From: Escherichia coli
GTDB taxonomy: Bacteria > Pseudomonadota > Gammaproteobacteria > Enterobacterales > Enterobacteriaceae
Direction: 5' to 3' (one strand)
Assembly: GCF_003334765.1 (NCBI RefSeq)
Contig: NZ_QOWT01000083.1
DNA length: 1,198 bases
Under the pieces are notes generated by a model. It was given only the letters and a program-made list of their open reading frames with translations. It searched no databases and was not told the DNA's origin. Each line of letters opens with the position of its first letter. Positions within the stretch are counted from its first letter, which is position 1. Made by a program: the position numbers and the translations under genes. Of the stretch, positions 150 to 1,182 are shown in pieces.

Positions 150-1166
150 TTAGTGAGATCTCTCCCACTGACGTATCATTTGGTCCGCCCGAAACAGGTT
201 GGCCAGCGTGAATAACATCGCCAGTTGGTTATCGTTTTTCAGCAACCCCTTGTATCTGGCTTTCACGAAGCCGAACTGTCGCTTGATGATGCGAAATGGG
301 TGCTCCACCTTGGCCCGGATGCTGGCTTTCATGTATTCGATGTTGATGGCCGTTTTGTTCTTGCGTGGATGCTGTTTCAAGGTTCTTACCTTGCCGGGGC
401 GCTCGGCGATCAGCCAGTCCACATCCACCTCGGCCAGCTCCTCGCGCTGTGGCGCCCCTTGGTAGCCGGCATCGGCTGAGACAAATTGCTCCTCTCCATG
501 CAGCAGATTACCCAGCTGATTGAGGTCATGCTCGTTGGCCGCGGTGGTGACTAGGCTGTGGGTCAGGCCACTCTTGGCATCGACACCAATGTGGGCCTTC
601 ATGCCAAAGTGCCACTGATTGCCTTTCTTGGTCTGATGCATCTCCGGATCGCGTTGCTGCTCTTTGTTCTTGGTCGAGCTGGGTGCCTCAATGATGGTGG
701 CATCGACCAAGGTGCCTTGAGTCATCATGACGCCTGCTTCGGCCAGCCAGCGATTGATGGTCTTGAACAATTGGCGGGCCAGTTGATGCTGCTCCAGCAG
801 GTGGCGGAAATTCATGATGGTGGTGCGGTCCGGCAAGGCGCTATCCAGGGATAACCGGGCAAACAGACGCATGGAGGCGATTTCGTACAGAGCATCTTCC
901 ATCGCGCCATCGCTCAGGTTGTACCAATGCTGCATGCAGTGAATGCGTAGCATGGTTTCCAGCGGATAAGGTCGCCGGCCATTACCAGCCTTGGGGTAAA
1001 ACGGCTCGATGACTTCCACCATGTTTTGCCATGGCAGAATCTGCTCCATGCGGGACAAGAAAATCTCTTTTCTGGTCTGACGGCGCTTACTGCTGAATTC
1101 ACTGTCGGCGAAGGTAAGTTGATGACTCATGATGAACCCTGTTCCATGGCTCCAGATGACAAACAT
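150..1166 (-). CDS. insH: IS5 transposase InsH (Ins5A), DDE-type; 338 codons from ATG at 1166..1164 to TAA at 152..150; alternative start at ATG 1130..1128 would give 326 aa ([12 protein letters not shown]...)
   Basis: Seen in sequence: uninterrupted 1017-nt ORF on the minus strand, verified codon by codon at both ends. Established knowledge: the translation is recognisably IS5 InsH, with IS4/IS5-type catalytic motifs: D155 in 'LVDATII' (codon 702..704), D232 in 'SADAGYQG' (codon 471..473), E288 in '[12 protein letters not shown]' (codon 303..305, R-x3-E-x6-K). Which ATG is used cannot be decided from sequence; neither has a strong Shine-Dalgarno. Confidence 0.95.
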
Positions 1167-1182
1167 GATCTCATATCAGGGA

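Follow-up and report, generated by a model that had tools for sequence, protein, structure and literature searches.

Does expression of the IS5 transposase respond to methylation by Dam, as it does in IS10 and IS50? The question is raised by a 1,198-nt stretch of Escherichia coli DNA (contig NZ_QOWT01000083.1, assembly GCF_003334765.1; the whole stretch is called the window here), in which positions 4..1198 are a complete, 1195-bp IS5 with the transposase gene ins5A (also insH) on the minus strand. An original prediction, made from the letters of the sequence, had pointed to a GATC, the target of Dam, immediately upstream of the first ATG of the transposase, and had called its relevance to IS5 speculative. 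By placing published transcript mapping on the window, we found that this GATC in all likelihood lies within the -10 hexamer of Pins5A, the promoter from which IS5 natively transcribes its transposase gene. A lowering of Pins5A activity by Dam, argued by analogy with IS10 and IS50, appeared to us to be a matter of even balance.

Position of the GATC relative to the native IS5 promoter

Throughout, IS5 position 1 corresponds to window position 1198. The GATC at 1167..1170 (both strands; IS5 positions 29-32) was indeed in direct contact with the CAT at 1164-1166, an ATG on the minus strand, with positions 1161-1174 of the plus strand reading AAACATGATCTCAT. It lies 29-32 bp from the left tip of the element, 13 bp inward from the left terminal repeat.

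The start of transcription from the ins5A promoter was mapped by 5' rapid amplification of cDNA ends (5'RACE) in a 2025 Nucleic Acids Research study on the activation of fucAO by IS5 (PMC11894529). The legend of its Fig. 7C gives A as the start base, 'gatcat' as the -10 element, 'gtgcga' as the -35 element, and a promoter region extending from -41 to +30. According to that paper, the start and the -10 element are identical to those of the Sawers 2005 proposal; the published basis of the mapping comprises 5'RACE and primer extension.

On the window, the -10 hexamer GATCAT was located on the minus strand at 1165..1170 (IS5 positions 29-34), its single occurrence in the first 120 bp of the element. 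The transcription start A was located at 1157 (minus strand; IS5 position 42), 7 nt downstream of the hexamer, and the proposed -35 element GTGCGA, with 3/6 consensus bases, at 1188..1193 (minus strand; IS5 positions 6-11), inside the left repeat; the spacer between GTGCGA and GATCAT measured exactly 17 bp. The published numbering was consistent with this placement, as a region from -41 to +30 sets +1 at IS5 position 42, an A, and +28 to +30 on the ATG at positions 69-71. The geometry of the Crp site in the same study (PMC11894529) agreed with this numbering. The rest of the 27-nt 5' untranslated leader, derived from the start site and the start codon, occupies 1131..1156 on the minus strand, and its sequence is not conserved in relatives. 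The Dam site overlaps a core promoter element: the GATC constitutes bases 1-4 of the mapped hexamer, i.e. promoter positions -12 to -9, and we consider its assignment to the -10 hexamer of Pins5A to be very probable. In mononucleotide shuffles, a GATC appeared anywhere between the terminal repeat and the start codon in ~17% of cases, and wholly inside the 6-bp hexamer in ~1.1%.

A TG dinucleotide is present on the minus strand at 1172..1173 (IS5 positions 26-27), which the spacing places at -15/-14, so that IS5 positions 26-34 read TGAGATCAT, with the form TGnGATCAT of an extended -10 element next to a poor -35 (3/6). From these features, we read Pins5A as a probable extended -10 promoter (TGn plus hexamer), which would independently support the published -10 and explain how a promoter with a poor -35 inside a terminal repeat can work. 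A consensus promoter scan of the window returned zero hits; Pins5A, with 7/12 consensus bases, falls under the threshold of the scan, which neither supports nor contradicts the assignment. The native ins5A promoter has been described as almost silent (PMC11677980, PMC11894529).

Conservation of the left end among relatives of IS5

The comparison covered 80 loci encoding transposases 70-100% identical in protein to that of IS5, with one genome per species. The elements were delimited at these loci and 49 distinct left ends were compared. A protein search of a plasmid collection did not widen this diversity, as only IS5 and ISKpn26 copies, at least 96% identical, were present among the matches listed. 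The protein tree was divided into two clades, the IS5 clade (clade A) and a sister clade (clade B). The IS5 clade contained 24 distinct left ends, for which the synonymous divergence (dS) from IS5 was saturated (>1.2 or not computable), except for ISKpn26 (0.235).

Despite this divergence, positions 26-34 read TGAGATCAT almost throughout the IS5 clade: positions 26-30 and 33-34 were invariant (24/24), with slightly weaker conservation of T31 (22/24) and C32 (23/24). At position 35, the majority base fell to 11/24, and the leader past this point could not be aligned. The right ends of the relatives were conserved across the 16-bp repeat only, and the additional conserved block is thus specific to the left end, a pattern better matched by a promoter than by symmetric binding of the transposase. 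Moreover, the TG located one base upstream of the hexamer was found in 47 of the 49 distinct left ends, in both clades, and the hexamer began 29-30 bp from the tip in 48 of them. As judged from these alignments, the -10 hexamer is clearly under purifying selection.

Some of the loci were decayed copies, with stop codons in the transposase frame (L038, L039, L050, L056, and L077). In L077 (Marinomonas sp. MED121), the match spanned 1310 nt instead of the usual ~960, which suggests an insertion in the gene.

The ATG adjoining the GATC

The ATG at 1164..1166 (minus strand), which the original prediction took for the first transposase ATG, does open the longest open reading frame (150..1166, 338 amino acids). 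It is not the annotated start: in RefSeq, the gene (150..1130, minus strand; WP_000019402.1) begins with the ATG at element position 69 (window 1130-1128) and encodes a product of 326 amino acids. Homologues of this length begin at the same methionine, which was invariant in the protein alignment. The two ATGs are in frame, 12 codons apart.

The upstream ATG at 1164-1166 also precedes the transcription start at 1157, and native transcripts would consequently not contain it. Nor was it conserved, since, of the 24 distinct left ends in the IS5 clade, that of IS5 proper alone had an in-frame ATG touching the GATC, and the other 23 lacked it. In ISKpn26 (97-98% protein identity), GATCATCAT stands where IS5 has this ATG, and most other relatives have in-frame stop codons between its position and the conserved start. 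From published mapping and conservation together, the ATG at 1164-1166 is a part of the promoter, in which it takes up the final two hexamer bases and one more base, and is in all probability not the start codon; it is probably unused on native transcripts. Read-through transcripts coming from outside the element could in principle give a 338-amino-acid form unique to IS5 proper.

Hexamer variants and host type

In the sister clade, the hexamer at the same place was GACAAT, GATAAT, GAGAAT, or GCTAAT, and never contained GATC. The sister-clade elements were found in Marinomonas, Motiliproteus, Marinobacterium, Neptuniibacter, Amphritea, Stutzerimonas/Pseudomonas, and Endozoicomonas, and those of the IS5 clade mainly in Enterobacterales, Aeromonas, Vibrio, Shewanella, and Alteromonas. 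We take the host orders of the IS5 clade to carry the Dam-SeqA-MutH module, and Oceanospirillales and pseudomonads to be without it. The literature searched yielded no documentation of the distribution of Dam, SeqA, and MutH among bacterial orders.

The C at -9, which completes the GATC and departs from the consensus, was retained throughout the IS5 clade (C32, 23/24). Among Oceanospirillales hosts, a single intact clade-A element was found (L040, Nitrincola); its hexamer is GATAAT, with the consensus A at -9, and it was nested inside clade A in 200/200 bootstraps. The other two losses of the GATC in clade A concerned L038, which has stop codons and an ATA in place of the start codon, and L053, on a truncated Vibrio contig. 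According to parsimony, position 3 of the hexamer changed once in clade A (twice with the truncated L053 included) over a branch length of 1.09, and seven times in clade B over a branch length of 1.68.

In two elements without a -10 GATC, a GATC was observed inside the terminal repeat instead: L040, from a Nitrincola metagenome-assembled genome (MAG), with GGAACCTGCGATCAAG, and L056 (Neptunomonas), with GGAAGGTGTGATCAAG. Their hosts are presumed to lack Dam, and these sites are probably without consequence.

Possible control of Pins5A by Dam

E. coli carries Dam, and its GATC sites bear methyl groups on both strands apart from a short interval following replication. In a Dam+ host, the -10 GATC would be expected to be fully methylated for most of the cell cycle, and the methylated adenines would be the non-template A-11, which is the base that sigma-70 flips out and captures at promoter opening, and, on the template strand, the partner of T-10. 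Full methylation would most likely lower Pins5A activity, as at IS10 pIN and IS50 P1, and it is because of the analogy with these two promoters that regulation by Dam may be expected here. Passage of the replication fork would then open a short hemimethylated window with higher, and possibly strand-specific, transcription of the transposase gene. IS10 and IS50, which the original prediction also invoked, are the precedent: Dam limits transcription of their transposase genes through methylation of promoter elements, and expression of the IS50 transposase is ~19- to 25-fold higher in dam- cells (PMC4265352). With the GATC inside a published -10 hexamer, a link between Dam and IS5 would appear better founded than the original prediction could know. 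We regard the joint reading, i.e. a GATC in the -10 hexamer of the weak native Pins5A whose methylation most likely lowers activity, as evenly poised, and Dam sensitivity of Pins5A in itself, which is argued by analogy, may equally well hold or fail.

A more far-reaching scenario can be formulated, which we offer tentatively and consider rather unlikely. Selection would have maintained, in the IS5 lineage, a Dam site precisely aligned with the extended -10, methylation of A-11 would gate promoter opening, and replication would produce a burst of transcription from one daughter duplex. The GATC would be fixed in Dam hosts and revert to the plain, stronger GATAAT in Dam-less hosts, and the near-silence of the native promoter would be partly Dam repression.

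Several observations weigh against control by Dam. In the literature searched, no experiment that examined IS5 in dam- cells was found, nor any account of more frequent IS5 transposition in dam- hosts or on hemimethylated DNA, several of the searches being swamped by IS50 or by unrelated words, and neither of the two recent Pins5A papers (PMC11894529 and PMC11677980) mentions Dam or methylation. A Crp-activated fusion promoter with the same -10 and start yields ~1200 Miller units in a dam+ strain (PMC11894529), and a methylated hexamer is thus not an absolute block. Most ins5A mRNA in K-12 arises by read-through from outside, from the nmpC promoter, with next to no activity of the native one (PMC11677980), so that control of the native promoter may matter little. 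The terminal arm of the IS10/IS50 scheme is missing in IS5, which has one GATC near an end and none in its repeats. Moreover, GATC is not enriched in the element: four sites were counted, against a mean of 6.5 (standard deviation 2.1) in 200 dinucleotide-preserving shuffles, of which 186 contained at least four.

The evidence from host type is limited as well. A genus-level Fisher test (20:2 versus 5:15, P = 2e-5) ignores shared ancestry, and the association corresponds to about two independent evolutionary events. The contrast between the rates of change at position 3 in clades A and B is only suggestive. The fit of the comparative pattern to selection for a Dam site in presumed Dam+ hosts is weak. 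GATCAT is still present in five loci from hosts outside the presumed Dam clade. Among these five loci, L025 (Methylobacillus rhizosphaerae) and L045 (Streptomyces morookaense) were 98-99% identical to the enterobacterial ISKpn26, and the left end of L030 (a Kangiella MAG) was the same as that of an Alteromonas copy. L032 (a Flavobacteriaceae MAG) likewise came from an unexpected host, but its left end is distinct. For these four loci, contamination of the assembly, mis-binning, or a transfer of very recent date is likely, and the host assignments of at least two of the five look unreliable.

Two further candidate sources of evidence were inspected. The genome paper of the dam- strain ER2796, which carries two IS5 insertions, was set aside as uninformative, since the inactivation of dam came late in the history of the strain. 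In an expression study of a dam deletion, the supplementary data contained no entry for insH.

Among the alternatives, the most substantial is that the GATC is incidental, the hexamer being kept as a -10 box and GATCAT being an inherited variant, methylated without meaningful effect on expression or transposition. We consider this a real possibility, somewhat on the lesser side of even. It accommodates both the lack of GATC enrichment and the activity of the Crp-bound promoter in dam+ cells. GATCAT and the sister-clade GACAAT each match TATAAT at 4/6 positions, and position 4 of the hexamer is just as invariant among sister-clade elements, where it is A, so that invariance alone is no pointer to Dam; as the GATC form is confined to essentially one clade, one ancestral event could suffice. 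Such a reading is less at ease with the retention of a non-consensus C at -9 across a clade of saturated synonymous divergence, and with the replacement of this C by the consensus A in the only intact clade-A element found outside Dam-clade hosts. In addition, E. coli precedents indicate that a GATC in a transposase promoter element usually confers sensitivity to Dam (PMC4265352).

Two other explanations would give the GATC a role outside transcription initiation. Methylation might alter the use of the left end by the transposase or by a host protein, instead of or in addition to transcription; the site is 29-32 bp inward of the left tip, within the left-end block that is conserved to position 34, and according to work attributed to Roberts et al. 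in 1985 and Yin et al. in 1988, Dam reportedly acts at an element end, the inside end, in IS10 and IS50 too. We consider this improbable, as the 16-bp repeats contain no GATC, and the right end has neither a GATC within 150 bp nor subterminal conservation. The conserved block and the -10 hexamer share the same last position, and the TG of the extended -10 is within the block, which a promoter explains better. Far less probable still is that the GATC owes its importance to direct contact with the genuine start codon of a 338-amino-acid transposase and thereby affects the translation context or a long isoform. The ATG at 1164-1166 opens the longest reading frame and would be present on read-through transcripts from outside, the main source of ins5A mRNA in K-12. 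Against this stand the RefSeq start at 1130, the native transcription start at 1157 downstream of the ATG, and the lack of the in-frame ATG in ISKpn26 and every other relative, mostly with in-frame stops; furthermore, Dam acts on DNA and not on mRNA.

Comparison with Dam-regulated transposase promoters

IS10 pIN resembles Pins5A: both are weak promoters of transposase genes, close to the end of their element, and in both the -10 region is overlapped by a GATC. IS10 was reportedly found to be coupled to replication through hemimethylation (work of Roberts et al. in 1985); it has a second Dam site in the transposase-binding region of its inside end, and is also controlled by antisense RNA. Transcription initiation at pIN is limited by Dam methylation (PMC4265352). 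In contrast to IS10, neither terminal repeat of IS5 contains a GATC, and Dam sensitivity, demonstrated for IS10, would hold for IS5 by analogy.

IS50 P1/T1 shares with IS5 an inherently weak transposase promoter, a GATC in this promoter, and an effect of Crp. It differs in having two overlapping promoter GATC sites instead of one, and Crp represses IS50 P1 (PMC4265352) but activates the IS5 promoter when an upstream site is present (PMC11894529). IS50 also belongs to a different family (IS4), and produces an inhibitor protein from a second promoter.

IS903 is, like IS5, a member of the IS5 family, with the RefSeq product name 'IS5-like element IS903 family transposase'. Its ends show no sequence relationship to the ends of IS5, and two GATCs are present near the tip (39-42 and 45-48 bp from it), versus one in IS5. 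Transposition of IS903 is said to have been raised in dam- hosts in the 1985 study of Roberts et al. The RefSeq start of IS903 (locus L082, 1133-2101) is a TTG 33 bp from the tip, upstream of both GATCs, for a protein of 322 amino acids. The classical 307-amino-acid IS903 product would start at a GTG ~45 nt further in, at about position 78. The two GATCs lie between these candidate starts, and would be coding or promoter sequence depending on which start is real.

The elements of the sister clade (Marinomonas, Motiliproteus, Marinobacterium, Stutzerimonas) have the same layout as IS5, with a 16-bp repeat, a TGn followed by a hexamer that begins 29-30 bp from the tip, a divergent leader, and then the transposase start; they differ from it in having no Dam site in the hexamer, of which position 3 is freely variable (seven changes). 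Overall, among the features of Dam-regulated transposase promoters, IS5 has the sequence feature and not the terminal GATC. By analogy, Pins5A most likely works like such a promoter, and we do not file it as a member of the group.

Implications for IS5 activity

Both the IS5 sequence and the -10 assignment are already in the literature, and that a Dam site coincides with the -10 can be read from them. In E. coli, many spontaneous and stress-associated mutations are due to IS5, which is a major source of them, e.g. of those activating bgl, glpFK, fucAO, and flhDC, and the near-silence of its native promoter has been measured solely in dam+ strains. If the -10 is sensitive to Dam, passage of the replication fork would govern the expression of IS5 as it does that of IS10 and IS50, and the promoter would appear silent partly as a result of methylation; methylation would in this case fall on A-11, the key base of the -10 element. 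If the -10 is not sensitive, the GATC would be an ordinary consequence of the hexamer sequence.

Other GATC sites and short motifs

The further GATC sites listed in the original prediction, at 157-160 and 647-650, were correctly placed, and a fourth, at 408-411, had been missed. The sites at 408..411 and 647..650 (both strands) lie within the transposase coding region. The site at 157..160 (both strands) overlaps the last transposase codons as part of an AGATCT (BglII) and lies 154 bp from the right tip; it is thus not terminal. No GATC was found in either 16-bp terminal repeat and, apart from the site at 1167-1170, none lay 150 bp or less from either tip. SeqA requires paired GATC sites. Sequestration by SeqA was set aside for IS5, as the left end has a single GATC in its vicinity, ~520 bp away from its closest neighbour.

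The GATC at 408-411 belongs to a weak inverted repeat with arms of 24 nt (389-412 and 815-838, 75% complementary), in the first of which it falls. The heptamer TGAGATC was observed once per strand, at 154-160 (plus), where it overlaps the last transposase codons and the AGATCT, and at 1167-1173 (minus), where it corresponds to the promoter TG and the GATC. This pair was rejected as a meaningful feature and is probably due to chance: ~0.15 matches were expected, and the two copies are asymmetric about the ends (26 versus ~151 bp). The tetranucleotide CATG was counted 16 times in the element, versus 9.9 expected, a number reached in only 2 of 200 dinucleotide shuffles; three of these sites are in the first 71 bp of the element, one of them overlapping the -10 hexamer.

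The IS5 copy in the window

The element was 99.9% identical, over its full length, to annotated IS5 copies. Matches were found in 2874 of 5426 complete E. coli genomes, a count that includes related elements, since these matches ranged from 60 to 100% identity. The terminal inverted repeats (16 bp; 4-19 and 1183-1198) were complementary at 15/16 bases and separated by 1163 nt. The left repeat (IRL; 1183..1198, minus strand), GGAAGGTGCGAACAAG as read on that strand, was kept in all related elements, and conservation at the right end of relatives stopped at base 16 of the right repeat (IRR; 4..19, plus strand), GGAAGGTGCGAATAAG. Both the IS5-group form of the repeat, GGAAGGTGCGAA(C/T)AAG, and the length of ~1195 bp were observed here. 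The transposase gene is the single long gene of the element; its RefSeq product name is 'IS5-like element IS5 family transposase', and precomputed Pfam annotations on close homologues of the protein gave PF01609 (DDE_Tnp_1) and PF05598.

The target duplication of IS5 has the 4-bp form YTAR. The window contains only TAA, at positions 1-3, on one side of the element and no base on the other; at related loci, CTAA, TTAG, CTAG, or TTAA was found immediately outside the left repeat. Window position 100 (element position 1099), in the non-coding region of the right end, is a C in this copy, and a T both in the best-matching E. coli copies and in copies from other genera with 100% identical protein. 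Finally, a terminator-like hairpin followed by a T-rich run was observed near the right end (36-58, plus strand), a single hit compared with a mean of 1.1 in shuffles; the region that holds it is described in the literature as the bent, IHF-binding IB region.

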